Positions 231 through 58,366 of a DNA stretch of 64,000 nucleotides are shown piece after piece. Each line of letters opens with the position of its first letter. The first letter of the stretch is position 1. The stretch is taken from positions 1 to 64,000 of the forward strand of contig CAJFUK010000053.1 in NCBI GenBank assembly GCA_904420125.1, in the 5' to 3' direction. This DNA is from Candidatus Falkowella caecavicola (GTDB taxonomy: Bacteria > Bacillota > Clostridia > Oscillospirales > Ruminococcaceae). A program made the translations under genes and the position numbers. The notes under the pieces were generated by a model. That model was not told the DNA's origin. It made no database searches and was given only the letters and a program-made list of their open reading frames with translations.

Positions 231-1973
231 CTAACGGACTTCTTTTCCCCGCTTCACATAGGAGGTATGGAGCGTCTCATGCGCAATATGGCTGCCCGGT
301 TTCTCCAGATACTCCTCATAAACCAGCTTCATCAGCGGGCTCTGATGCGATTTCCGAAGCGGCAGATTTTTATCTTCCTCATAGAGCGCTTTGGCACGCA
401 TCCCTTTCAAATCCTCAAAATTCCGTACAGAAGCCGGCTGCAGCGGCTGTCCTCCGCCGTTAACACATCCGCCCGGACATCCCATGATTTCAATAAAGTC
501 AAATTTCTCTCCGGCCTTTACCCGTTCGAGAAGTTTTTTGGCATTTCCGGTACCGCTGGCAACGCCGACCTTCACCGTTGCATCTCCAATTTTATAGGTG
601 GCAACTTTGACGCCTTCCGTTCCGCGAACCTCCTGATATTCCACTTCCTGCAGATCCTGACCGGTCACCCAGTCAGCCGCCGTACGGAGTGCAGCCTCCA
701 TCACGCCGCCGGTTGCGCCGAAGATAACAGCCGCACCGGTAAATTCTCCCATGATCTGGTCAAAAGCTTCGTCTTTCAGGCTGGTGAACTGGATATGCGC
801 GCGTTCAATCATGCGTGCCAGTTCACGGGTGGTGAGCGCCACGTCCACATCCGGATAGCCGGATGCCGATTCGTCTTCCCGGCCGATCTCAAATTTCTTT
901 GCGGTACAGGGCATGATGGAAACAACAACAATATCCTCCGGATTGAGGTTGTTTTTCTTTGCATACCATGTTTTGATCATCGCGCCGGTCATCTGCTGAG
1001 GCGATTTACAGGTTGAAAGGTTGGGAATAAATTCCGGGTAATAATGTTCGCAGTATTTCACCCAGCCGGGGGAACAGGAAGTAATCATCGGCAGCACGCC
1101 GCCCTTTGTGAAACGCTCTACGAACTCGTTGGCCTCCTCCATAATGGTGAGGTCCGCACCAAAGTTGGTATCAAAAACCTTGTCAAAACCAAGACGGCGG
1201 AGTGCCGCAACCATTTTTCCTTCTACATTCGTACCGATCGGCAGACCAAAGCTCTCGCCAAGCGCAGCCCGAACAGCGGGCGCAGTCTGCACAACCACAT
1301 GCTTATTCGGGTCTCCAAGCGCCTCCCATACTTTCGCGGTGTTATCCCGCTCCTGCAAAGCGCCGGTCGGGCAGTTCACAATACACTGACCGCATCCGAT
1401 ACAAGGCGTGTTATTCAGCGGCCGCTCAAACGCGCAGCCGATGCTGGTGTCAAATCCACGGGCATTTGCGCCGATGACAGCGACCTCCTGTGCCTGGCAG
1501 GCAGCGACACAGCGGCGGCAGAGCACGCATTTGCTGTTATCCCGTACCAGATAGGCCGTTGATTCATCTTTAACCGTTTGAGTGACAGCACCGTCATACC
1601 GGCCCTCGTCTTCCACGCCGTATTCCCGGCAAAGATTTTGGAGTTCGCAGTGTCCACTGCGGGAGCAGGAGAGACATTTGCGCTGATGGTTGGACAGAAT
1701 GAGTTCGAGCGTCATTCTTCTGGAATCCTGTACCCGTTTGGAATTGGTATAGATCTCCATTCCTTCCGCCACCGGATATACGCAGGAAGCTACGAGACTG
1801 CGTGCGCCTTTGACCTCAACAACGCAGATACGGCAGGCGCCGATTTCATTCATTTCTTTCAAATAACAGAGTGTCGGGATATTGAATCCGGCCTCTCTTG
1901 CCGCCTCCAGAATCGTGTAAGTATTCGGAACGGTCAAGGGCATGCCGTTGATGGTAATATTAACAGTTTTCAT
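231..1973 (-). CDS. hydA: [FeFe]-hydrogenase catalytic subunit (HydA/HndD-like). It has an N-terminal 2Fe-2S domain and multiple 4Fe-4S Cys motifs. H-cluster motifs: L1 is TSCSPGW (variant of TSCCPxW), L2 is MPCTAKKFE, L3 is EIMGCPGGCVNGGGQP.
   Basis: Motifs read in the 580-aa translation. It is the terminal gene of an operon with NuoE- and NuoF-like subunits. Confidence 0.9.
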   Translation of the reverse strand: MKTVNITINGMPLTVPNTYTILEAAREAGFNIPTLCYLKEMNEIGACRICVVEVKGARSLVASCVYPVAEGMEIYTNSKRVQDSRRMTLELILSNHQRKCLSCSRSGHCELQNLCREYGVEDEGRYDGAVTQTVKDESTAYLVRDNSKCVLCRRCVAACQAQEVAVIGANARGFDTSIGCAFERPLNNTPCIGCGQCIVNCPTGALQERDNTAKVWEALGDPNKHVVVQTAPAVRAALGESFGLPIGTNVEGKMVAALRRLGFDKVFDTNFGADLTIMEEANEFVERFTKGGVLPMITSCSPGWVKYCEHYYPEFIPNLSTCKSPQQMTGAMIKTWYAKKNNLNPEDIVVVSIMPCTAKKFEIGREDESASGYPDVDVALTTRELARMIERAHIQFTSLKDEAFDQIMGEFTGAAVIFGATGGVMEAALRTAADWVTGQDLQEVEYQEVRGTEGVKVATYKIGDATVKVGVASGTGNAKKLLERVKAGEKFDFIEIMGCPGGCVNGGGQPLQPASVRNFEDLKGMRAKALYEEDKNLPLRKSHQSPLMKLVYEEYLEKPGSHIAHETLHTSYVKRGKEVR

Positions 1974-1989
1974 AAAGCATACACCTTTC

Positions 1990-3777
1990 CTATTTCTTAA
2001 TGATTGCGCCGAACTTACATTTTTCCATGCAGGCGCCGCACTTTAAGCATTTTGATTGATCAATGGTGTGCGGATTCTTAACCGTGCCGGAGATGGCTTC
2101 GGCCGGACAGACTCTTGAACAAAGGGTACATCCCTTACATTTGTCTTCCTGAATCTCATAATGGATCAGATGCTTACAAACGCCGGCCGGACAGGTCTTG
2201 TCCTTGACATGCGCGACATATTCATCGCGGAAGAACCGGAGTGTGGACAACACCGGGTTGGGCGCTGTCTGACCAAGGCCGCAGAGCGCGGAGTCCTTGA
2301 TATAATAGCAGAGCTGTTCGATGGTATCCAGATCTTCCATGGTACCGTTTCCGCGGGTAATCTTATCAAGCAGTTCATACAGGCGCTTGATCCCGATCCG
2401 GCAGGGCGTACATTTGCCGCAGGATTCATCGACGGTAAATTCAAGGAAGAACTTCGCAATATCCACCATACAGGTGTCTTCGTCCATAACAATCAGTCCG
2501 CCGGAACCCATCATTGCGCCGATCTGAATCAGGCTGTCATAGTCGATTTTTACGTCATAGCACTGTGCCGGAACGCATCCGCCGGAAGGTCCGCCCATCT
2601 GTGCGGCTTTAAACTTCTTGCCGTTTGGAATGCCGCCGCCGATCTCCTCGACAATCGTGCGGAGCGTCGTTCCCATTGGAACCTCCACCAGACCGGTGTG
2701 TTTAATTTTTCCGCCAAGCGCAAAAACTTTGGTACCCTTAGACTTTTCTGTACCAATGGAAGCAAACCATTCCGCTCCGTTTAAGATAATCTGCGGGATA
2801 TTGGCATAGGTCTCAACGTTATTGAGAATGGTCGGTTTTTCAAACAATCCCTTGACTGCCGGATACGGAGGACGGGGACGGGGTTCACCGCGGTGTCCCT
2901 CGATCGAAGTCATCAGAGCGGTTTCCTCGCCGCAGACAAATGCGCCTGCGCCCAAACGAATATCCAGATCAAAATCAAACCCGGTGCCGAAAATATTTTT
3001 ACCCAGCAATCCGTATTCTCTTGCCTGCTGAATCGCAATTTCCAGACGATGTACGGCAATCGGATATTCCGCGCGGACATATATGTAACCCTGGCTGGCG
3101 CCGATCGCATAGCCTGCAATCGCCATGGCTTCAATGACTGAATGCGGGTCGCCTTCGAGTACAGAACGGTCCATGAATGCGCCCGGGTCGCCTTCATCGG
3201 CATTGCAGCAGACATATTTCTGGTCCGCCTGGTTGGCTGCCGCAAGGCTCCATTTGACGCCGGTCGGGAAGCCGCCGCCGCCCCGTCCGCGCAGGCCGGA
3301 TTCTTTCACCACATCAACAACCTGCTGCGGTGTGTATTCAGTCAGACATTTTGCCAAAGCCTGATATCCGTCAAAAGCGATATATTCGTCGATATTCTCC
3401 GGGTTAATCACGCCGCAGTTACGCAGGGCAACACGCTGTTGTTTGGCATAAAACTGGGTTTCATTCAGGGACTTGACGGTATCCTTTTCGACCGTCTCAT
3501 CATAGAGCAGCCGGGTGACAACACGTCCCTTAAGCAGGTGCTCTTCTACGATTTCCGGAACATCTTCCACTTTTACCATACTGTAGAAGGATCCTTCCGG
3601 ATAAACAATCATAATCGGGCCAAGCGCGCAGAGGCCGAAACAGCCTGTCCGCACAACGTTGACTTCATTTTCCAAACCGTGTTCACGGATTTGTTCTTTT
3701 AACGCTTCAATAATTTTAGTACTGTTTGAGGATGTACATCCGGTACCGCCGCAAACCAGAACCTGAGAACGAAACAT
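1990..3777 (-). CDS. hydB: NuoF-like NAD(P)H-binding flavoprotein subunit of a bifurcating hydrogenase (HydB/HndC-like). It carries the FMN/NADH motif GRGGGGFPTGVKW, an N-terminal thioredoxin-like 2Fe-2S domain and C-terminal 4Fe-4S ferredoxin motifs.
   Basis: Conserved NuoF (51 kDa) motifs in the translation. There is a 17-bp gap to hydA. Confidence 0.9.
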   Translation of the reverse strand: MFRSQVLVCGGTGCTSSNSTKIIEALKEQIREHGLENEVNVVRTGCFGLCALGPIMIVYPEGSFYSMVKVEDVPEIVEEHLLKGRVVTRLLYDETVEKDTVKSLNETQFYAKQQRVALRNCGVINPENIDEYIAFDGYQALAKCLTEYTPQQVVDVVKESGLRGRGGGGFPTGVKWSLAAANQADQKYVCCNADEGDPGAFMDRSVLEGDPHSVIEAMAIAGYAIGASQGYIYVRAEYPIAVHRLEIAIQQAREYGLLGKNIFGTGFDFDLDIRLGAGAFVCGEETALMTSIEGHRGEPRPRPPYPAVKGLFEKPTILNNVETYANIPQIILNGAEWFASIGTEKSKGTKVFALGGKIKHTGLVEVPMGTTLRTIVEEIGGGIPNGKKFKAAQMGGPSGGCVPAQCYDVKIDYDSLIQIGAMMGSGGLIVMDEDTCMVDIAKFFLEFTVDESCGKCTPCRIGIKRLYELLDKITRGNGTMEDLDTIEQLCYYIKDSALCGLGQTAPNPVLSTLRFFRDEYVAHVKDKTCPAGVCKHLIHYEIQEDKCKGCTLCSRVCPAEAISGTVKNPHTIDQSKCLKCGACMEKCKFGAIIKK

Positions 3778-3822: not shown

Positions 3823-4194
3823 TTATACAGCAGACGCACCGATGGTATATTCTGTAACAACTTCCCCGTTCATCAAGTGGCTGTGTACAACACGGAGCGC
3901 CTTTTCCGGAGTCATCTTTACATAAGTAACTTTTTCTTTGCCCGGTTCGAAAATTTCTACAACCGGTTCATATTGACAGATACCGATACATCCTGTCTGG
4001 GTAATGGTGACGCCGGACAGGTTTTCTTTGGAAACCTCTTCCACCAAAGCGTTGAGGACTGGGCGCGCACCGGCCGCAATGCCGCAGGTTGCCATACCGA
4101 CAACCACGCGGATGCCGTCCTCTGTTTCCGCACGCATTTCAATTTCTTTGCGGGCCTTATCCCGAATCGCCTGCAATTCAGCTAACGTTTTCAT
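3823..4194 (-). CDS. Thioredoxin-like [2Fe-2S] ferredoxin (HndB-like small subunit). Start placed at the internal ATG (MKTLAELQ...) preceded by a GAAGGAGGAG RBS. It overlaps the upstream stop by ATGA.
   Basis: Cys pattern C..C...GCIGIC. The RBS precedes the internal Met. The longer ORF-track version would overlap the upstream gene by about 90 bp. Confidence 0.7.
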   Translation of the reverse strand: MKTLAELQAIRDKARKEIEMRAETEDGIRVVVGMATCGIAAGARPVLNALVEEVSKENLSGVTITQTGCIGICQYEPVVEIFEPGKEKVTYVKMTPEKALRVVHSHLMNGEVVTEYTIGASAV

Positions 4195-4775
4195 ACTGCT
4201 CCTCCTTCTGAATCTGGAGCCGCCGCCGGGGTGTCTCCCTGCAGCTCCTCTGTATTTTCCTGTAAAAATCCCCGAATCCATTCTGTCACTTCCGGCATAT
4301 TCAGGGGCACTCCTTCCAGCGTCTCCCGGAGTGTCCGGGTATCTAAAACAAACTGTCTGCCGTCCAGAGTATATTCATATATGAAATCAATCTCCGGATT
4401 ACAGGATATCAGCATGGTCATTGTACCGCAGATATCCCCAACCGGTGTAAAATCAATACTGTCACTGTTAAAACAAGCGCAGATCTGGGTACCCTCTCCA
4501 GGCACGGATTGAATAGAAAAACTTCCTCCGGTCATTTCCGCTGCCATTTTAAACAGCGGGATGCCAAGACCGACCTTCCGTGTGGTACGGGTCGTGTAAA
4601 AAGGATCTGTCACTGCATTGACCTGTTCCGGCGTCATCCCGCAGCCGTCATCCTCGATGGAGATCGACAGGCTGTGTTGGGCCCGGTTCTCCCGAAGCCG
4701 GACAGCGATCAGGCTGGCTCCTGCTGAAATCGAATTCTGCACAACGTCCAATACGTTAAGCGACAGCTCCCGCAT
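4191..4775 (-). CDS. Histidine-kinase-like ATPase (HATPase_c) domain protein embedded in the hydrogenase operon. This is the HydD-like protein seen in trimeric/tetrameric bifurcating hydrogenase operons.
   Basis: HATPase-like motifs (DDGCGM, GLGIPL) in the translation. Its position between the NuoE-like and ferredoxin genes fits. Confidence 0.6.
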   Translation of the reverse strand: MRELSLNVLDVVQNSISAGASLIAVRLRENRAQHSLSISIEDDGCGMTPEQVNAVTDPFYTTRTTRKVGLGIPLFKMAAEMTGGSFSIQSVPGEGTQICACFNSDSIDFTPVGDICGTMTMLISCNPEIDFIYEYTLDGRQFVLDTRTLRETLEGVPLNMPEVTEWIRGFLQENTEELQGDTPAAAPDSEGGAV

Positions 4776-4805: not shown

Positions 4806-5300
4806 TTATTGATATTTTTTCAGAATATCTTCCACGTCATCTACGGTCAGACGTCCGTATACATCATCGTTGACCGTCAGTACCGGTGCAAGCCCGCAGG
4901 CGCCGATACAGCGGCATGCCGTCAGAGAAAATTTGCCGTCCTCTGTTGTCTCTTCGGGATTAATATGTAGCAGTTCTGTCAGTTTGTTCAGGATATCTCC
5001 TGACCCTTTGACATAACAGGCCGTTCCAAGACAGACAGAAATGTTGTACTCTCCCTTGGCAGACAGTGAGAACTGAGAGTAGAACGTGGATACTCCATAT
5101 ACCTCTTCAATCGGTACATTCAGACCCTCTGCAATCATAGACTGCACCTCAATCGGCAGATACCCGTAAATAGCTTGCGCTTCCTGCAAAACCGGCATAA
5201 CCGCACCCCGCTGGTCTTTATGCGCCTCAATGACTTGTTTGAGTTTCTGCTCCTGTTCCGCAGTCCCCTTAAACGGCAGATTGCTGATGGATTTACGCAT
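4806..5300 (-). CDS. hydC: NuoE-like thioredoxin-like [2Fe-2S] subunit of a bifurcating hydrogenase (HydC/HndA-like).
   Basis: NuoE Cys motifs (CLGTACYVKGS ... CRCIGACGLAPV). It is the first gene of the minus-strand operon. Confidence 0.85.
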   Translation of the reverse strand: MRKSISNLPFKGTAEQEQKLKQVIEAHKDQRGAVMPVLQEAQAIYGYLPIEVQSMIAEGLNVPIEEVYGVSTFYSQFSLSAKGEYNISVCLGTACYVKGSGDILNKLTELLHINPEETTEDGKFSLTACRCIGACGLAPVLTVNDDVYGRLTVDDVEDILKKYQ

Positions 5301-6008
5301 GGCTGTTCCTCCTTAAACCCTTGATTGTTTTGCTCAAATAATTGATGCAGCAGCTGATCTTCCGTCCGAGATAAACACAAACGAAAATGAATCCCATTCC
5401 AAAGTGCCACACCTCATCGGAGCATCCCCAGCCCAAAACACCAGCCCGGAAAATACGCTCTGCAAAGACTGGGTATCTTCTGCCGGCAATAGCATCTACA
5501 GACAAAAAGGTATCCCCCTGACCCGGTGTTGTCTCTCCAATGGAATCGGATCAAAATCAGCTGTATGTTCCCTTGCATATGAGTGTGAATTATTTATCAA
5601 TCATTTGCAAAAAAACAAACAAATTTTAATCCTACCGACATTTTTCGAGAAAAGCGGTAAAATATTGTCTTTTTTTAGTCAAACTTAATAATTTATTCAC
5701 GATTCTTATGCAAATATCACATATATCTTAGATATTATAGCATAGATTTTTTCATAAATCTACCGTTTTTTATTTCTTTCCAAAATTTTTTATTTTTTAT
5801 TGCGTTTTCCCGTAAATTCTTATTGTTTCTTATGATTTCTCCTGTTTTCTCTTTCCTGAACCCCCATTGCGTTCTGTATACCTGGCTCCCCGCGGGTTAA
5901 AATAATATCCGGATATCATATTTTCTTTCCCATTCTATGTTTGTCCGGCAATAAATATGAGCACACAGGAGTCACTTGGCCTGTGCGCTCATATTTGCCG
6001 GATTTTCC

Positions 6009-6344
6009 TTAATATTTCACAATAGCGTTTGCGATTTCCAACAGCATTGTTTTTTGTGTTTCGTTCATTCGACAGTAGATCGTTTCGATTTCTTCCCGCA
6101 GGTACTGAGGCTGTTTCGGAACAGAACCAGTGATCAGTTCCGAAAGATCGCACTCCAGCAGGACTGCAATACTGGAAAGAGTATCCAGGCTAATCTTGGT
6201 TGCTCCGCGTTCAATCTGGCTGATATACCCCACGGATACACACAAAGCTTCTGCAAGATCATCCTGTGTTTTTCGGCTTTTTTTCCTTTTTTCTTTAATC
6301 CTCTGCCCAATGACCTTGTAATTCACCTTCATTCCTATCACCAA
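6009..6344 (-). CDS. XRE-family helix-turn-helix transcriptional regulator.
   Basis: HTH_XRE signature (TQDDLAEALCVSVGYISQIERG). It is divergent from a small ORF, with a palindrome in the spacer. Confidence 0.8.
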   Translation of the reverse strand: MVIGMKVNYKVIGQRIKEKRKKSRKTQDDLAEALCVSVGYISQIERGATKISLDTLSSIAVLLECDLSELITGSVPKQPQYLREEIETIYCRMNETQKTMLLEIANAIVKY

Positions 6345-6502
6345 CTTTATTGTATAAATAAAAACTCGAAATTTACAGATACTTATAACTATAAAAATAG
6401 CTATAAGTATTGATTTTTGCCGAATATTATGGTAAAATTATAGTAATCATGTAAATGGTATAAAAATATGTTTTAGGAAAAAATCCTAAAAGGGGAAGTT
6501 TT

Positions 6503-6751
6503 ATGGACTTGTTAGAATCCATTTCGTCCATCCTGCATTGTCAGTATATGTCAGATCTACATTACATTAAAATTACTCACGGGCAAGCTGATCAACTCCG
6601 TCAGCTGGAAGATAACCATTTCACATTATCTGATTGTCAGGATGCAGTTTGTTATATTTGCGGAGATGACGTACCCTGCACCAGCTTTCAGGAAGCCAAA
6701 CAAGTAATTATCCAACAGTTATTACGTGAAGAGCCGGAAACCCGTCAGTAA
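6503..6751 (+). CDS. Hypothetical small protein (82 aa), divergent from the XRE regulator and followed by a strong terminator.
   Basis: ORF with a plausible RBS (AAAGGGGAAG) and a terminator at 6762-6800. No recognisable domain. Confidence 0.4.
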   Translation: MDLLESISSILHCQYMSDLHYIKITHGQADQLRQLEDNHFTLSDCQDAVCYICGDDVPCTSFQEAKQVIIQQLLREEPETRQ

Positions 6752-6761
6752 AATAAAAAAA

Positions 6762-6800
6762 TAAAACCCCCGTGCGGTGTCAAACCGGACGGGGGTTTTA
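6762..6800 (+). terminator. Rho-independent terminator (CCCCCGTGCGGTGTCAAACCGGACGGGGG followed by TTTTATT).
   Basis: GC-rich hairpin plus T-tract read directly. Confidence 0.8.
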
Positions 6801-7054
6801 TTGCCTGAAAAGAAATTTCCGCCTATCTGCTGCCTGCCTTGCTGTTTCTTTCTGGCATAGCACAACAAAATCCATCATATTTCATAAGTTTATTTCACAA
6901 TCTTCTCTGTCTATAGTTGATTCCGATGGAAAAGTCTGATATAATAAAAATACAGCAAATTCAACAAAGAAAAAACAACATGCTGGAAGCCACAAACATT
7001 GGATTCCGCGCCGCGTCGAATCGTATATAACAGTTGCGGCAGAAAGGGGTTTTT

Positions 7055-7405
7055 ATGAATATTAAGGAAGTTGTCCGGATTTTGGATGCAGAGATTGTAT
7101 GTGGAGAAAATCTGGATTTTCATGTAAATACTGCTTGCGGAAGCGATATGATGAGCGATGTTCTGGCTTTTGTGAAAGACCAGTCGCTGTTGCTGACAGG
7201 GCTGGTTAATCCGCAGGTTATTCGGACTGCAGATATGATGGACATGCGGTGTATTGTTTTTGTCCGCGGTAAAACCCCCACAGAGGAAATGACTGCATTG
7301 GCACAGAAATTGGATATTATGCTTTTAAAGACACGTTATCGAATGTTTACAGCCTGCGGCCGCCTGTACCATGAAGGTCTGGGAGGAGGCTGCGATGAAA
7401 CATGA
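7055..7405 (+). CDS. DRTGG-domain protein, a putative hydrogenase-associated regulator component. Start placed at the internal ATG with an AAAGGGG RBS.
   Basis: Similarity of architecture to the second DRTGG ORF at 9182 (G.D.L...LL.TG...V....IVF pattern). It is the first gene of the sensory-hydrogenase cluster. Confidence 0.55.
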   Translation: MNIKEVVRILDAEIVCGENLDFHVNTACGSDMMSDVLAFVKDQSLLLTGLVNPQVIRTADMMDMRCIVFVRGKTPTEEMTALAQKLDIMLLKTRYRMFTACGRLYHEGLGGGCDET

Positions 7406-7827
7406 ATGCCTTAAAAAAACATTATATTGTTCCTGGCGATGATTTTACACGGGCTGGAGAGGCGTCTGGAAAGGTCAAAGGGACGCTGAAACAGCTGGGA
7501 TATAACAGTGATGTCATCCGCCGTGTTGCCATTGCCATGTACGAAGGTGAGATTAATATGGTCATCCATGCAGGCGGCGGGGAAGCGGACGTATCGATTT
7601 ATCCAGACCGGGTAGAAATTATTCTGTCTGATCATGGTCCGGGAATCCCGAATGTGGAACTGGCCATGCAGGAGGGTTATTCCACTGCGCCGGACGATGT
7701 GCGCTCTCTGGGGTTCGGTGCTGGTATGGGATTGCCGAACATCAAAAAATATACCGATGAAATGCGGATTGATACCAAAATTGGCGTGGGTACCCAAATG
7801 TATATGACGATCCGTGTCCACCCCTGA
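7402..7827 (+). CDS. Anti-sigma regulatory factor-like Ser/Thr-kinase-type HATPase protein (RsbW/SpoIIAB-like).
   Basis: HATPase_c motifs (SDHGPGIP, GFGAGMGL). It overlaps the upstream stop (ATGA). Confidence 0.7.
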   Translation: MNALKKHYIVPGDDFTRAGEASGKVKGTLKQLGYNSDVIRRVAIAMYEGEINMVIHAGGGEADVSIYPDRVEIILSDHGPGIPNVELAMQEGYSTAPDDVRSLGFGAGMGLPNIKKYTDEMRIDTKIGVGTQMYMTIRVHP

Positions 7828-7862
7828 TCCGCTGCCATAAGTTTTGAAAGGAGGCGGCGTAT

Positions 7863-9134
7863 TTGCCTCAATTTTTTCATAGTGTTACTTTGAATGAAGA
7901 ATTATGCCACGGCTGTACGACCTGTATCAAGCGCTGTCCTACGGAAGCTATCCGGGTGCGAAACGGAAAGGCGGTCATTACTTCTGAACGGTGTATTGAC
8001 TGCGGAGAATGTATCCGTGTCTGCCCGCATCATGCGAAAAGCGCCAAATCAGACAAACTGTCGATCATCAGCCGTTTTACTTATAAAATTGTCCTGCCTG
8101 CGCCTTCTCTGTATGGGCAGTTTAATAATCTGGACGATATCGATTATGTGTTGGCTGGCCTGCTAAAGCTGGGATTTGATGAAGTATATGAAGTATCCGC
8201 AGCCGCAGAGCTTGTCTCGGATGCTACACGCAATCTGATGGAGCGGGGCAAGCTGCAAACGCCGGTGATCAGTTCGGCCTGTCCGGCGGTTGTCCGGCTG
8301 ATTCGGCTGAAATTTCCGGATTTATGCGGCTATGTACTTCCCCTGCTGTCTCCCATGGAGATCGCCGCCCGTACTGCAAAACGCCAGGCTGCAAACAGAT
8401 TGGGATTGCCTGTTGAAGAAATCGGCGCTTTTTTTATTTCTCCATGCCCTGCAAAAGTGACCGATATCCGTGCGCCGATCGGTATACAGGATTCCTGGGT
8501 AGACGGCGTATTTTCCATGAATGAAATTTACCCGAAACTTTTAGAAACGATGACAAAAAAAGAAGAACCTTCCCTTTTAAGCCATTCTGGGCTGATCGGT
8601 GTGAGTTGGGGCAGCAGCGGAGGAGAAGCCTCCGCGCTGATTCAGAAAAAGTATCTGGCAGCGGACGGGATAGAAAATGTCATGGGAATTCTGGAAGCAC
8701 TGGAAGACGGCCGATTGCGAGAGCTGGAATTTATTGAGCTCAATGCCTGTCCGGGCGGATGCGTCGGCGGTGTATTAACGGTGGAAAACCCTTTTGTCGC
8801 GCGTGCCCGCATCCAACAGCTTCGCAAATATCTGCCTGTATCTTTAAATCACCTGGAAACCGGCGCTTCTTCAATTCCCAACCAGATGTGTTGGCAGGAA
8901 CCGTTAGAATCCGCCGATGTTTTAAGGCTTTCTGATGACCTGGGTGAAGCTATGGAAATGATGGAACAGATCGACTTGCTTTACGAAAGCCTGCCCAAGC
9001 TGGACTGCGGTTCTTGTGGGGCGCCGTCCTGCCGCGCACTGGCAGAAGATGTAATTTGCGGAAAAGCCGGAAAATACGATTGTATTTTCGTTCTGCGGGA
9101 AGAACTGAAAAAACAGGGCGTGTCCATTGGCTAG
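7863..9134 (+). CDS. Sensory-type [FeFe]-hydrogenase paralogue (HydS-like, no PAS domain). It has two N-terminal 4Fe-4S ferredoxin motifs and an H-domain with L1 as SSACPAV (proton-relay Cys replaced by Ala), L2 as SPCPAK and L3 as ELNACPGGCVGG, plus a C-terminal 4-Cys motif. Start is TTG with an AAGGAGG RBS.
   Basis: Motifs read from the translation. Its neighbours are DRTGG and anti-sigma-like ATPase genes. Confidence 0.75.
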   Translation: MPQFFHSVTLNEELCHGCTTCIKRCPTEAIRVRNGKAVITSERCIDCGECIRVCPHHAKSAKSDKLSIISRFTYKIVLPAPSLYGQFNNLDDIDYVLAGLLKLGFDEVYEVSAAAELVSDATRNLMERGKLQTPVISSACPAVVRLIRLKFPDLCGYVLPLLSPMEIAARTAKRQAANRLGLPVEEIGAFFISPCPAKVTDIRAPIGIQDSWVDGVFSMNEIYPKLLETMTKKEEPSLLSHSGLIGVSWGSSGGEASALIQKKYLAADGIENVMGILEALEDGRLRELEFIELNACPGGCVGGVLTVENPFVARARIQQLRKYLPVSLNHLETGASSIPNQMCWQEPLESADVLRLSDDLGEAMEMMEQIDLLYESLPKLDCGSCGAPSCRALAEDVICGKAGKYDCIFVLREELKKQGVSIG

Positions 9135-9181
9135 TCCGTATAGCCCTGGATTTCGTTATACAATAGGAAGGAGCATATGGG

Positions 9182-9514
9182 ATGACTGCCGCCGCACTTT
9201 GCGAAATGTTAAATCTGATTCCGCTTGCTGGAATGGAAGGAAAGAACAAAGAAGTAACCGGAGGGTATATTGGTGACCTGCTCAGCTGGGTCATGGGACG
9301 CTGTAAGGAAGGAGATGCCTGGATAACGGTAATGGGAAACCGTAATGCTGTAGCTGTTGCCCTTCTGCGGGATGTCTCCTGTATTATACTTTGCGAGGAT
9401 GCAGAGTTGGATGCGGATGCCCGGACAAAAGCAGATGAAGAAGGGATTTTTATTGTCCGTTCTTCCCTGCCCGCATATGAACTGGCGATCCGCCTGTCCG
9501 CCCTTTTAAAGTAA
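9182..9514 (+). CDS. DRTGG-domain protein (second copy).
   Basis: GGAAGGAG RBS. The domain pattern matches the 7055 ORF. Confidence 0.55.
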   Translation: MTAAALCEMLNLIPLAGMEGKNKEVTGGYIGDLLSWVMGRCKEGDAWITVMGNRNAVAVALLRDVSCIILCEDAELDADARTKADEEGIFIVRSSLPAYELAIRLSALLK

Positions 9515-9580
9515 GGTGCTGTCCATCAGCCGGTATTGGCCAGTGGATATGCAGAATGGAAAGGAGCGAAAACCCAAAAT

Positions 9581-9763
9581 ATGAAGCATTTTCAAAGGCT
9601 ATTGCTGTTGACTCTGGCCTTAGCCATGGGAGGCGGATTAGGCTACCTGTTATTGCCTGATTTTGAGCCGGTTCAAATGATCCTGTTTTCCGCCGCCTGC
9701 CTGGTATTGGGAGAAATTTTCTATCAGGTAGATAAATATATATCAAAAAAGAAGTCTTCATAA
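9581..9763 (+). CDS. Small predicted membrane protein (two hydrophobic helices). The start is uncertain.
   Basis: Hydrophobic ORF followed by a terminator. Weak RBS. Confidence 0.3.
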   Translation: MKHFQRLLLLTLALAMGGGLGYLLLPDFEPVQMILFSAACLVLGEIFYQVDKYISKKKSS

Positions 9764-9896
9764 TTGGAATATTCTCCCATTTAAGCAGACGACCAAACGG
9801 CATGTATCCGGTATGCGGGTTCCGCTCCAGATAAACTGAGTAACCCGCTTTTCATTCATGGCCGTATTGCCGCACTTCTTATTTCTGCACGAAAAA

Positions 9897-9936
9897 TCCC
9901 GACTTTAAAATAGAGTCGGGATTTTTTTGCACAGGC
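9897..9936 (+). terminator. Rho-independent terminator (CCCGACTTTAAAATAGAGTCGGG followed by ATTTTTTT).
   Basis: Hairpin plus T-tract. Confidence 0.8.
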
Positions 9937-10046
9937 CTGCCAGCTTCAATCTTTCCGGCTGCACACATGCGGGCAAGCCAAAACAACTTGTTTTTTTTAT
10001 TTTTGTGGTGTAAGATAAAGAAAAATCTACACATAGGAGGCACACC

Positions 10047-10967
10047 ATGAGTCGAATTCCTGTTATTATCGACACGGATCCGGGCGTAGACGACGCTGCC
10101 GCATTGGCTGCAGCCTGCTTTTGCGATCAGTTGGATATTCGTTTAATTACAACCGTTTCCGGAAACGTCAGCTGTGAAAAAACAACTGCAAACGCCTTAA
10201 AGCTTCTCGAATTTTTCAAAAAAGACATCCCGGTTGCCCGCGGCTGTGCATTTCCCCTGCTTCGGTCTCCCTTTTATGCCGATGATGTGCATGGGGAAAC
10301 CGGCCTGGATGGTTATATATTCCCTCCTCCATCGTCATCTCCGGTTCCAGTACATGCCGTAGAAGCGATCCATCATGTCCTGTTGGAGTCATCTGAGCCG
10401 ATGACACTGATTACCCTTGGAGCCTTAACGAATATTGCAGCACTGCTGACCCTTTATCCGGAGATTAAACCCCGTGTGCGGGAAATTATTACCATGGGCG
10501 GCAGCTTCTCCGGTGGAAACGTCACCTCAGGTGCAGAATTCAATATTTATGCGGATCCACATGCCGCTCAAATCGTCCTGCAGTCCGGTGTACCCATTCT
10601 GCTGGTCGGACTTGATGTTACCATGAAAGCGCTGCTGGAACCTGAAGATGTTGAACAGATACAAAGTACAGGGCCGACCGGACAAATGCTCTGTGCCTTA
10701 TTTGCCCATTATCGTGCGTCTTGCCGGGACGGATTGGAAATGCACGATTCCTGCGCGGTTGCCGCTTTAGTGAAGCCAGAGCTGTTTACTATACAAAATG
10801 TATTTGCTGAAGTTATCTTAGACGGTCCGGGCGCTGGTACGGTGATCGGGGACTTCCGCATGCGGTTTCATGACCATCCTAATGCGCGGGCCTGTATGGC
10901 AGTGAATACACCAGCGTTTCGCCAATGGTTGGTACAGGCGCTGCGAAAAGCAGACGCTGCGGAATAA
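10047..10967 (+). CDS. Inosine-uridine-preferring nucleoside hydrolase family protein.
   Basis: N-terminal DTDPGVDDAAALA aspartate-cluster motif. AGGAGG RBS. Confidence 0.85.
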   Translation: MSRIPVIIDTDPGVDDAAALAAACFCDQLDIRLITTVSGNVSCEKTTANALKLLEFFKKDIPVARGCAFPLLRSPFYADDVHGETGLDGYIFPPPSSSPVPVHAVEAIHHVLLESSEPMTLITLGALTNIAALLTLYPEIKPRVREIITMGGSFSGGNVTSGAEFNIYADPHAAQIVLQSGVPILLVGLDVTMKALLEPEDVEQIQSTGPTGQMLCALFAHYRASCRDGLEMHDSCAVAALVKPELFTIQNVFAEVILDGPGAGTVIGDFRMRFHDHPNARACMAVNTPAFRQWLVQALRKADAAE

Positions 10968-57652: not shown

Positions 57653-58366
57653 AATTTCTTCTATGATCTGCATCTGCATTCCTGTCTGTCTCCCTGCGGC
57701 GATCAGGATATGACGCCGTATAATCTGGTCCATATGGCCCAATTGCTGGGGTATGATCTGATTGCGCTTACGGACCATAACACCACCCGAAACTGTCGGG
57801 CTGCGCTGGAAGTCGGAAAGGCATCCGGCATGACAGTGATCCCTGGAATGGAACTTTGTACAGCGGAAGAAATCCATATGATCTGCCTGTTTGAAGCGCT
57901 GGAAAGTGCGGAACAGTTTGGCGCATTTGTTCGGGAGCGGATTCCCCCGGTTTCAAACCGGCCCGAAGTATTTGGGGCACAGCTTCTGATGGATGCAGAA
58001 GACCGGGTCCTCGGTGAAGAAGAACTGCTTTTAGTCACTGCCTCCTCCATCAGTATCGAGGACCTTCCCGACCTGATGCCGGCATATGGAGGTATCTGCT
58101 ATCCAGCGCATATTGATCGCGCTTCCTATAGTATTATATCGAGCCTGGGTGTCTTTCCGGAACATTTATGTTTCTCTGCGGCGGAAATCAGCCCTTTGGG
58201 AAACCGGCAGAAATTGATCGAACAGCATCCTGTATTAAATCAACTGCGCTTGATCACCAGTTCGGATGCACACCATCTAGAACATATGCCGGATCCCACC
58301 CATCAGATTGCATTAGATGAACTATCCGCCGCTTGCCTGATTCGCACACTTCGGCAGACTGTCTGA
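57653..58366 (+). CDS. PHP-domain metal-dependent phosphoesterase.
   Basis: DLHLHSCLSPCGD PHP motif I. GGGAGG RBS. Confidence 0.75.
   Translation, partial: NFFYDLHLHSCLSPCGDQDMTPYNLVHMAQLLGYDLIALTDHNTTRNCRAALEVGKASGMTVIPGMELCTAEEIHMICLFEALESAEQFGAFVRERIPPVSNRPEVFGAQLLMDAEDRVLGEEELLLVTASSISIEDLPDLMPAYGGICYPAHIDRASYSIISSLGVFPEHLCFSAAEISPLGNRQKLIEQHPVLNQLRLITSSDAHHLEHMPDPTHQIALDELSAACLIRTLRQTV

Follow-up and report, generated by a model that had tools for sequence, protein, structure and literature searches.

The [FeFe]-hydrogenases of Group D (M2e) are already classed as putative sensors that lack a PAS domain and are encoded near kinases and the bifurcating hydrogenase HydABC. They are defined by N-terminal F-clusters, loss of C299, replacement of M353 by Ser or Thr, a C-terminal Cx2Cx4Cx16C motif and the absence of PAS (PMC8163306, PMC6984386). 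Carere et al. (2012) recorded 'D M2e' hydrogenases, which lack PAS/PAC domains, five genes upstream of 'A1 TR(M3)' trimeric hydrogenases, with Cthe_0335/Cthe_0340-0342, Athe_1292/Athe_1297-1299, Csac_1857/Csac_1862-1864 and TTE0887/TTE0892-0894 as examples (PMC3561251). TamHydS, the Group D enzyme of Thermoanaerobacter mathranii, takes up the [2Fe] cofactor and is reactive towards H2 (PMC8163306, PMC10407848); it combines high H2 affinity with low turnover and a stabilised Hred state, and interconverts H+ and H2 slowly and reversibly (PMC8163306). An alternative, Group D-specific proton path has been proposed to run through its residues E252, E289, S249 and D265 (PMC10407848). According to the TamHydS literature the C-terminal cluster is not reduced by H2, and PMC13104023 cites a report of an H2-induced change in the secondary structure of the protein. 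How a signal leaves a Group D protein without a PAS domain is a question posed in print (PMC8163306, PMC13104023). Here we describe a locus of this kind, at positions 7055-9514 of a 64,000-nucleotide stretch (the window; contig CAJFUK010000053.1) of Candidatus Falkowella caecavicola, which encodes a hydrogenase, HydS, together with two DRTGG-domain proteins and a small ATPase of the GHKL type. The locus is rather probably a Group D putative H2-sensor cassette that acts on a NuoEF-type, bifurcating-type HydABC.

The hydrogenase and its gene cassette

The interval 7055-9514 of the forward strand holds four co-oriented genes in the order DRTGG1, HATP_s, HydS and DRTGG2. Genes and coordinates are as a preliminary description of the stretch had claimed, and Pfam confirms every domain named there. 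The cassette, the signals and the small open reading frame (ORF) around it, and a PHP-domain gene located elsewhere in the window are as follows.

6917..6945, + strand: promoter-like site, TTGATT and TATAAT separated by 17 nt, with extended TG (consensus scan, 10/12 matches)
7055..7405, + strand: DRTGG1, 116 aa, stand-alone DRTGG-domain protein (PF07085, E 5.8e-8)
7402..7827, + strand: HATP_s, 141 aa, small SpoIIAB/RsbW-like GHKL ATPase, putative Ser kinase (HATPase_c, 2.2e-9; HATPase_c_2, 6e-8)
7863..9134, + strand: HydS, 423 aa, Group D (M2e) [FeFe]-hydrogenase, as identified by Pfam domains, alignments and an AlphaFold2 (AF2) model
9182..9514, + strand: DRTGG2, 110 aa, paralogue of DRTGG1 (PF07085, E 9.4e-6)
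9581..9763, + strand: possible hydrophobic small ORF of 60 aa, read from the sequence, of uncertain membership in the system
9886..9931, + strand: intrinsic-terminator hairpin with a U run behind it (RNA folding energy -26 kcal/mol; z -8.4 relative to shuffled sequences)
57653..58366, + strand: PHP-domain phosphoesterase (PF02811), 237 aa (homology to the PHP proteins of related cassettes; metal ligands)

By its Pfam domains HydS consists of two Fer4 domains, whose matches span residues 9-60, the large hydrogenase domain Fe_hyd_lg_C (4.3e-32) and the C-terminal FeS domain PF04060 (6.6e-11). No PAS domain matched in Pfam at E ≤ 0.01, and the protein stops 16 residues past C407. Its L1 motif, VISSACPAVV, aligns with the TSCCPxW of solved [FeFe]-hydrogenases, so that CpI C299 corresponds to Ala139 of HydS and the cluster ligand C300 to Cys140; the preliminary description had therefore read correctly, in this 423-aa protein, the SSACP sequence in which Ala takes the place of the proton-relay Cys. 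The L2 motif is ISPCPAK, in which M353 is replaced by S193 and the Lys, K198, is retained, and in L3 (ELNACPGGC) M497 is replaced by N294. The C-terminal motif C382-x2-C385-x4-C390-x16-C407, with GS as the x2 and GAPS as the x4, has the form Cx2Cx4Cx16C. We fetched 80 related loci, largely from uncultured members of the Oscillospiraceae, Acutalibacteraceae and Ruminococcaceae, which encode HydS relatives at 56-69% identity. SSACP, STACP or an equivalent is present in 75 of them, and at the M353 position, whose change to Ser or Thr is well conserved in M2e (PMC8163306), all 80 have one or the other of these two residues.

The remaining cluster-binding positions were read from an alignment of 53 diverse relatives. 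The N-terminal cysteines C15, C18, C21, C25, C44, C47, C50 and C54 are invariant, as are the H-cluster ligands C140, C195, C296 and C300 together with the L2 Lys, K198. E255, D268 and E292 are likewise invariant in these relatives, along with all the cluster cysteines, and A139, S193 and the fourth proton-path residue, S252, vary little or not at all. Pairwise alignment with TamHydS (54% identity over 413 residues, E 3e-166) matches E252/E289/S249/D265 of the Group D proton path with E255/E292/S252/D268 of HydS. The TamHydS protein had to be rebuilt, by stitching reading frames, from a coding sequence damaged by optical character recognition (supplement of PMC13104023); a database protein (P0121) is 99% identical to the rebuilt sequence and supports the reconstruction. 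TamHydS and HydS share domain order, the change of C299 to Ala (A137 in TamHydS), the change of M353 to Ser, the E/E/S/D path, the Cx2Cx4Cx16C motif and the lack of PAS. They differ at M497, which is Leu in TamHydS and Asn in HydS, at a position reported to be poorly conserved, and at E122 of TamHydS, which is Asn124 in HydS.

The AF2 model of HydS, built on the alignment of 53 relatives, is confident, with a pLDDT (predicted local distance difference test) of 90.7. A Foldseek comparison of the model with the PDB gave [FeFe]-hydrogenases for each of the 50 best matches, at about 19-23% identity, so that no close (Group C/D-level) relative of HydS appears among solved structures. The family itself is very large, with at least 8000 matches in each of two protein searches. 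In short, HydS is of the sensory, PAS-less type, as the preliminary description had proposed, and agrees with Group D (M2e) in every feature that sequence can test; as judged from alignments and model, its H-cluster site is intact and lacks a proton relay of the Group A kind. As a hydrogenase it is nothing new: because PAS-less putative sensors of Group D near HydABC are already published, it is an ordinary further example of a described class, and the novelty at first attached to it was overstated.

The situation is partly different in the Group C (M2f) enzymes, namely TmHydS, the HydS of R. albus and HfsB of T. saccharolyticum. As in HydS, the relay Cys is replaced in them, N-terminal F-clusters and a C-terminal four-Cys cluster are present, the genes lie near hydABC, and a role in H2 sensing has been proposed (PMC5707799, PMC10055695). 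However, Group C proteins carry a C-terminal PAS domain, of which the window's HydS has none, and their signal is passed on by Ser/Thr protein kinases and phosphatases (PMC5707799), whereas the partners of HydS are DRTGG proteins, a SpoIIAB-like GHKL protein and a PHP protein.

DRTGG1 begins with ATG, preceded by GAAAGGGG; its stop codon is overlapped by the HATP_s start by 4 bp (ATGA); and HydS begins with TTG, 8 nt after the ribosome-binding site AAAGGAGG, its homologues aligning from residue 1. The promoter-like site at 6917-6945, a consensus match only, lies about 110 bp 5' of DRTGG1 and downstream of a strong terminator hairpin (6760-6802, z -7.4 in folding against shuffles) that is itself 5' of the cassette. 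The hairpin at 9886-9931 is the probable end of the sensory transcription unit. From the intergenic gaps of -4, 35 and 47 bp, the promoter-like site and the two terminator hairpins, co-transcription of the four genes is a reasonable inference, and in this genome the cassette is a transcription unit separate from hydCBA. An Rfam scan of 5200-10200 found no riboswitch or leader RNA; its three matches were all implausible and below gathering scores.

A conserved partner set and its natural fusions

The ORFs of the 80 related loci were searched with the window proteins, and the denominators below are the loci with enough flank. HATP_s and DRTGG1 precede HydS in 78 of 79 loci, DRTGG2 lies downstream in 78 of 78, and a PHP gene follows directly 3' of DRTGG2 in 69 of 71. 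The gene neighbourhood of DRTGG, HATPase and PHP genes that the preliminary description had made the measure of its proposal is thus conserved in about 97-100% of these loci. Genes of hydABC were found within the fetched flanks of 43 of the 80, and linkage was also seen in six more distant or fusion-bearing loci (L081-L085 and L087). Of the loci flanked by 8 kb or more on each side, 33 in all, 12 have the hydABC block downstream, four have it divergent and 17 have none in range. In two loci, L043 (8476-15490) and L074 (8595-16909), the cassette is nested in the hydABC operon itself, between hydC and the HATPase_c gene.

The same arrangement extends far beyond these families. The ten-gene order DRTGG1, HATPase_c_2, HydS, DRTGG2, PHP, NuoE, HATPase_c, ferredoxin, HydB, HydA recurs unchanged in three distant genomes: a Thermoanaerobacter contig, Caldicellulosiruptor bescii and Coprothermobacter. 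The Thermoanaerobacter contig carries the protein P0123, which is 96% identical to the rebuilt TamHydS, so this relative of TamHydS has the DRTGG/HATPase/DRTGG/PHP/hydCBA gene context too. At that locus hydCBA is directly downstream, whereas the window has it in divergent orientation at a distance of 1.75 kb, with the PHP gene 48 kb off. The window departs from the norm in this displacement of PHP and in the presence of an XRE gene and a small ORF between the cassette and hydC; the arrangement is slightly degenerate, in that PHP has moved and foreign genes have come in, and it is not the best model for signalling work.

The PHP gene at 57653-58366, to which the preliminary description had pointed, is real and encodes the sole PHP homologue in the 64-kb window. 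Its median identity to the cassette PHP proteins is about 50%, compared with 51% for DRTGG2 and 59% for HydS, and its metal ligands (H7, H9, D41, H42, E67, H75, H153, D205, H207) are intact and invariant in 42 sequences. It is best read, from these comparisons, as a relocated orthologue of the fifth cassette gene. It lies beside a gene that by eye is clpB-like; tblastn found no PHP pseudogene remnant 3' of DRTGG2, and the slot held by PHP in related loci is occupied in the window by the possible 60-aa ORF (9581-9763) and the terminator at 9886-9931. The N-terminal 80 or so residues resemble the TrpH/YciV/RNase AM and nucleoside-bisphosphate-phosphatase types, a subfamily call based on sequence.

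We know of no context in which a function of the DRTGG domain has been established. The two DRTGG proteins of the cassette have the DRTGG/HprK-N alpha/beta fold, which is unrelated to STAS. In DRTGG1 the residues D31 and S34 stand in the invariant motif CGSDMMSDVLAFVK, and DRTGG2 has the same invariant D and S in GDLLSWVM. When both paralogues of four distant taxa are aligned, only M1, D31, S34, T48, A59 and L104 are invariant, and the motif D-x-x-S-D/W-V-L is kept in the fused and distant DRTGG versions as well. Residues 31-40, with D31 and S34 among them, form the only low-confidence segment of the DRTGG AF2 model. Because S34 is invariant in both paralogues and in the fused forms, and lies inside this segment, it is the best candidate for a functional or modification site. 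The DRTGG domains of CBS-pyrophosphatases (PDB 3L31), of AF1212 (PDB 2IOJ) and of the N-terminal part of HPr kinase (PDB 1KO7) are different, in that those of the cassette are stand-alone proteins, carry the family-specific invariant D-x-x-S-D-V-L and are placed beside, or fused to, a GHKL ATPase.

HATP_s has SpoIIAB (51 bits against a cut-off of 135) and RsbW (34 bits against one of 145) as its best NCBIfam matches, both far below cut-off, and the same two proteins as its best PDB matches (E 4e-6 and 2e-5, respectively) in alignments of nearly full length. Its N box (E48/N52/H56), G1 box (D77-x-G79-x-G81) and G2 box (G104-F-G-A-G-M-G-L) are all intact, and neither the catalytic Glu, Asn and His (E48, N52, H56) nor the two glycine boxes vary among four distant taxa. 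HATP_s would therefore appear, by its profile and structure matches, to belong to a branch related to the anti-sigma-type Ser kinases SpoIIAB and RsbW; it is neither an RsbW orthologue nor an equivalog. The possibility that HATP_s is the catalytic and ATP-binding (CA) domain of a histidine kinase was considered and dropped, as its best matches are anti-sigma-type kinases and it has no His-containing partner domain.

The relatives of HATP_s proved informative about how the proteins are joined. A full-library HMMER search with HATP_s gave 2061 relatives at E ≤ 1e-3, and the best 150 representatives at 50% identity were classified as follows.

77/150: stand-alone HATP_s
36/150: HATP_s fused N-terminally to a HydS-like protein (two Fer4, Fe_hyd_lg_C-like and C-terminal FeS domains, four H-cluster Cys kept)
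22/150: CBS pair fused to HATP_s
10/150: DRTGG-HATP_s (98.6% probability in hhalign against the DRTGG1 profile)
1/150: DRTGG-CBS-HATP_s
1/150: HATP_s-DRTGG
3/150: N-terminal extension of more than 90 residues, unassigned

These natural fusions of DRTGG with HATPase, HATPase with a HydS-like protein, and CBS with HATPase in the same cassette position are what is new here. They recur on independent contigs from several sources, including a Thermovenabulum protein of NCBI, and they fill the expected cassette slots in cassette gene order, as the following loci illustrate (fused genes in round brackets).

L084: Rex, (DRTGG1-HATP_s), HydS, DRTGG2, PHP, NuoE, HATPase_c, ferredoxin, HydB, HydA
L085: DRTGG1-like, (HATP_s-HydS), DRTGG-like, PHP, HATPase_c, NuoE, 2Fe2S, NuoF-GltD-like, HydA
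L086 (6495-15158): Rex, DRTGG1, (CBS-HATP_s), DRTGG2, PHP, NuoE, HATPase_c, 2Fe2S, NuoF-GltD-like, molybdopterin formate-dehydrogenase-like subunit
L087: Rex, (HATP_s-HydS-like), DRTGG-like, PHP, HATPase_c, NuoE and onward
L088 and L089: DRTGG1, (CBS-HATP_s), HydS, DRTGG2

Because Rosetta-stone fusions of this sort follow the gene order, there is good evidence, of a comparative kind, that DRTGG1, HATP_s and HydS work as one physical sensor-transducer complex. L086 has no HydS gene; a formate-dehydrogenase-like subunit takes the place of HydA, and its CBS-HATP_s protein has a partial N-terminal DRTGG-like match. Taken with the CBS pairs added in L088 and L089, this locus suggests that one sensor input can be exchanged for another or added to it. 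The block of NuoE, second HATPase_c, ferredoxin and NuoF genes is constant in most contexts, which points to the NuoEF module, or its GHKL protein, as the receiving end.

In the HydS-like domains of the fusions the L2 Lys is missing: they have CPAQ or CPAE in place of CPAK, as read in P0376, P0380, P0397, P0406, P0414, P0419, P0428 and P0444 of the fusion alignment, and keep all the F-cluster, H-cluster and C-terminal Cys. Since the L2 Lys is missing, these domains may not carry the [2Fe] subcluster, and the HATP_s-HydS-like fusions may be FeS-only redox sensors rather than H2 sensors.

Some further features of these loci were observed. A Rex-type gene (Put_DNA-bind_N and CoA_binding) is directly 5' of the cassette in L084 (6372-7004), L086 (5694-6365) and L087 (5679-6779). 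In L088 (6646-14924) the cassette is without PHP and lies directly 5' of rnfCDGEAB and 3' of a NuoF-GltD-like gene and HydA. L089 ends in a 54-aa fragment at the DRTGG2 position and stops short of where the NuoE/HATPase_c/ferredoxin/NuoF block would lie.

As for possible signalling partners of other types, no transcription or sigma factor recurs beside the 80 cassettes; the recurrent neighbours resemble serA/serC by eye and have no DNA-binding look. Neither kind of factor turned up among the window's large ORFs, although a target could be encoded elsewhere. No PP2C was seen in the distant and fusion cassettes examined, and the cassettes of the window and the related loci examined include no response regulator.

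The hydCBA operon and the intervening sequence

The bifurcating-type hydrogenase operon of the window lies on the opposite strand, and it is separated from the cassette by two genes.

231..1973, - strand: hydA, catalytic Group A [FeFe]-hydrogenase, 580 aa (Fe_hyd_lg_C, E 1.2e-100)
1990..3777, - strand: hydB, NuoF-like FMN/NADH subunit (Complex1_51K, E 3.5e-47, and NADH_4Fe-4S)
3823..4194, - strand: small thioredoxin-like [2Fe-2S] ferredoxin (family matches; start codon picked by reading the sequence)
4191..4775, - strand: HATP_hyd, 194 aa, second stand-alone GHKL protein, like the CA domain of histidine kinases (HATPase_c, E 1.4e-15)
4806..5300, - strand: hydC, NuoE-like [2Fe-2S] subunit, first gene of the operon (2Fe-2S_thioredx, E 2.7e-52)
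6009-6344, - strand: XRE-family helix-turn-helix gene, between hydC and the cassette
6503-6751, + strand: 82-aa ORF without family match, between hydC and the cassette

The preliminary description had called the cassette divergent from hydABC. The two are indeed on opposite strands, but hydC and DRTGG1 are 1.75 kb apart and not immediate neighbours, with the XRE gene, the 82-aa ORF and a terminator between them. Homologues of the XRE gene and the 82-aa ORF were found at that position in none of the 80 related loci; the two genes and the hairpin are a lineage-specific insertion.

HATP_hyd is a candidate for the receiving end of the signal. A GHKL gene stands at this position in every hydABC-type operon examined, the formate-dehydrogenase-like variant included. 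The C-terminal 90 or so residues of HATP_hyd have no family match, and it has no DHp/His domain; HisKA was not matched in Pfam by either GHKL protein (141 and 194 aa), both of which are bare ATPase domains.

The best solved relative of HydA is the HydA1 chain of 7Q4V (E 6e-224). The L1 motif of HydA (residues 298-304) is TSCSPGW, against the canonical TSCCPxW, so that by position a Ser takes the place of the Cys expected as the [4Fe-4S]H ligand (CpI C300); the L2 and L3 motifs have the canonical form. TSCSPGW is found in all 33 full-length HydA proteins encoded beside Group D cassettes, in the HydA of Thermoanaerobacter, Caldicellulosiruptor and Coprothermobacter, and also in the solved HydA1 chain common to 7Q4V and 7Q4W (the latter labelled A. 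woodii). Because it is common to all of these, it is a clade trait of a working enzyme. A literature search on the HydA TSCSP motif returned nothing relevant.

About 700 bp 5' of hydC (5300-6009) are non-coding, with no promoter-like match on the minus strand and no Rfam match. A search for the Rex operator (TTGTTAAN4TTAACAA, at most 3 mismatches) gave a weak site at 5583-5600, 5' of hydC, and three sites in the window against about four expected by chance; the surroundings of the window's cassette showed no Rex gene.

A possible signalling cycle and its alternatives

The literature searched, with many subscription papers (e.g. Calusinska 2010, Poudel 2016, Zheng 2014) outside its scope, contained no functional study of the partner genes and no link of DRTGG or PHP to hydrogenase sensing. 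It also described no signalling mechanism, as the preliminary description had supposed. The conserved features suggest the following course of events. HydS would bind H2 at its H-cluster without the Group A proton relay and, because this is known for TamHydS, to which it is related by 54% identity and conserved residues, would turn over slowly and persist in a reduced state. HATP_s, in a complex with HydS and DRTGG1 such as the fusions imply, would read the H2-dependent conformational or redox state of HydS and spend ATP on a modification, most likely a phosphorylation, of one DRTGG protein or of both, for which S34 is the best candidate site. The PHP phosphoesterase would reverse this modification, and the state of the DRTGG proteins would adjust HydABC at the protein level, possibly via HATP_hyd, rather than via a sigma factor. 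Kinase competence of HATP_s is predicted from its closeness to SpoIIAB/RsbW and its intact catalytic boxes, and hydrolase competence of PHP from the invariance of all its metal ligands. Since the cassette and hydABC form a single operon in many taxa and no DNA-binding partner was found, protein-level control of HydABC fits at least as well as transcriptional control. As a whole, an H2-gated cycle of GHKL kinase and PHP phosphatase acting on DRTGG proteins is put forward, tentatively, as the likeliest mechanism.

Several points weigh against this cycle and against the sensory role of the cassette in general. In print, the sensory role of Group D is still termed 'putative' (PMC8924675, PMC13104023), and 17 of the 33 fully flanked Oscillospirales loci have no hydABC within 8-10 kb of the cassette. 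Known PHP protein phosphatases are absent among the matches of PHP, which through its N-terminal 80 or so residues resembles nucleotide phosphoesterases, and in the window the PHP gene is outside the cassette operon. Phosphorylation, complex formation and regulatory output are only predicted for any Group D cassette, and the analogy of kinase and substrate is without precedent because the DRTGG fold is unrelated to STAS.

The preliminary description had thought of a partner-switching or phosphorelay cascade. In the classical form of the former, HATP_s would be the anti-sigma factor and kinase, DRTGG the anti-anti-sigma factor and PHP the phosphatase, and a freed sigma factor would transcribe hydABC. 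The SpoIIAB-SpoIIAA-SpoIIE and RsbW-RsbV-RsbU modules do resemble the cassette in having a small, dimer-type GHKL Ser kinase, which is the closest relative of HATP_s, along with small partners and a dedicated hydrolase, and the cassette likewise unites two small partner proteins and a phosphoesterase. However, three of the four defining features fail, as DRTGG is not STAS, PHP is not PP2C and no gene for a sigma factor or DNA-binding protein is conserved nearby. The input is different as well: a metallo-sensor, either fused or encoded alongside, or else a CBS pair. We therefore consider strict partner switching very unlikely, even though HATP_s is closest to SpoIIAB and RsbW. An H2 sensor of the two-component type finds no counterpart here either. 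The HoxBC-HoxJ-HoxA system of Ralstonia eutropha, as PMC5707799 outlines it, follows the same logic, with a low-turnover hydrogenase as the H2 sensor and a GHKL-family kinase that controls a catalytic hydrogenase. But its metal centre is unrelated, and HoxJ is there a full histidine kinase with a PAS-like domain that acts on the response regulator HoxA (PMC5707799), whereas the cassette has neither a DHp/His domain nor a response regulator.

It is also conceivable, though unlikely, that the module senses the redox or energy state and not H2: the HydS-type domain would report the reduction of ferredoxin or FeS clusters and CBS the adenylate charge, and NuoEF-type flavin enzymes would be tuned generally. 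The frequency of CBS-HATP_s fusions (22/150 representatives) fits with this, as do L086, which lacks HydS, carries a CBS pair on its HATPase and lies 5' of an operon for NuoEF and a molybdopterin formate-dehydrogenase-like enzyme, the fused HydS-like domains without the L2 Lys that holds the [2Fe] subcluster, and the Rex genes directly upstream in L084, L086 and L087. However, the window's HydS and its 53 stand-alone relatives keep K198, the H-cluster Cys and the Group D proton path, and the co-occurrence of CBS and HydS in L088 and L089 suggests added inputs, not an alternative function. TamHydS is, moreover, a [2Fe]-binding protein that reacts with H2 (PMC8163306, PMC10407848).

Still less is to be said for a cassette that is not regulatory at all, in which HydS would be a low-activity auxiliary hydrogenase or electron-transfer partner and the GHKL, DRTGG and PHP proteins would be assembly, repair or chaperone factors of HydABC. 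GHKL ATPases include chaperones, and the cassette is co-encoded with HydABC, possibly in matching amounts; but HATP_s belongs to the SpoIIAB-like signalling branch and not to the Hsp90 or MutL types, and the exchange of CBS and HydS as sensor domains is typical of signalling modules. The HydABC structures 7Q4V, 8A6T and 7P5H list chains of the HydA/B/C types only, and the enzymes in them are reportedly active without the cassette proteins. We consider such a role quite unlikely, even though the slow, reversible H+/H2 interconversion by TamHydS (PMC8163306) agrees with it.

Returning to the putative H2-sensor cassette, we would extend it, with considerable doubt, to a wider proposal, that DRTGG1, HATP_s, DRTGG2 and PHP together with the second GHKL protein of the NuoE/NuoF operon form a widespread, undescribed module with HydS (H2) and CBS (adenylate) as interchangeable inputs, which would exert post-translational control over hydrogenases and formate dehydrogenases of the NuoEF (flavin-based bifurcating) type by reversible modification of DRTGG. 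Such a module would be analogous to partner switching in its logic, with different folds.

Fermentative Clostridia tune their products (H2, acetate and ethanol) to the partial pressure of H2, with the 'sensory' hydrogenases of Groups C and D as their putative H2 sensors. What remains of interest at this locus is not the hydrogenase but its unexplained and highly conserved set of DRTGG, GHKL and PHP partners. The comparative analysis narrows the signalling question to this conserved set, namely the SpoIIAB-like ATPase, the pair of DRTGG proteins and the PHP hydrolase, and the fusions, which point to a physical complex, and the invariant Ser, a candidate site, make the signalling of PAS-less HydS experimentally approachable. 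If it is true that the module also governs formate-dehydrogenase-type NuoEF enzymes, it would be relevant to electron-bifurcating enzymes generally, including those of H2 metabolism in the gut and rumen.

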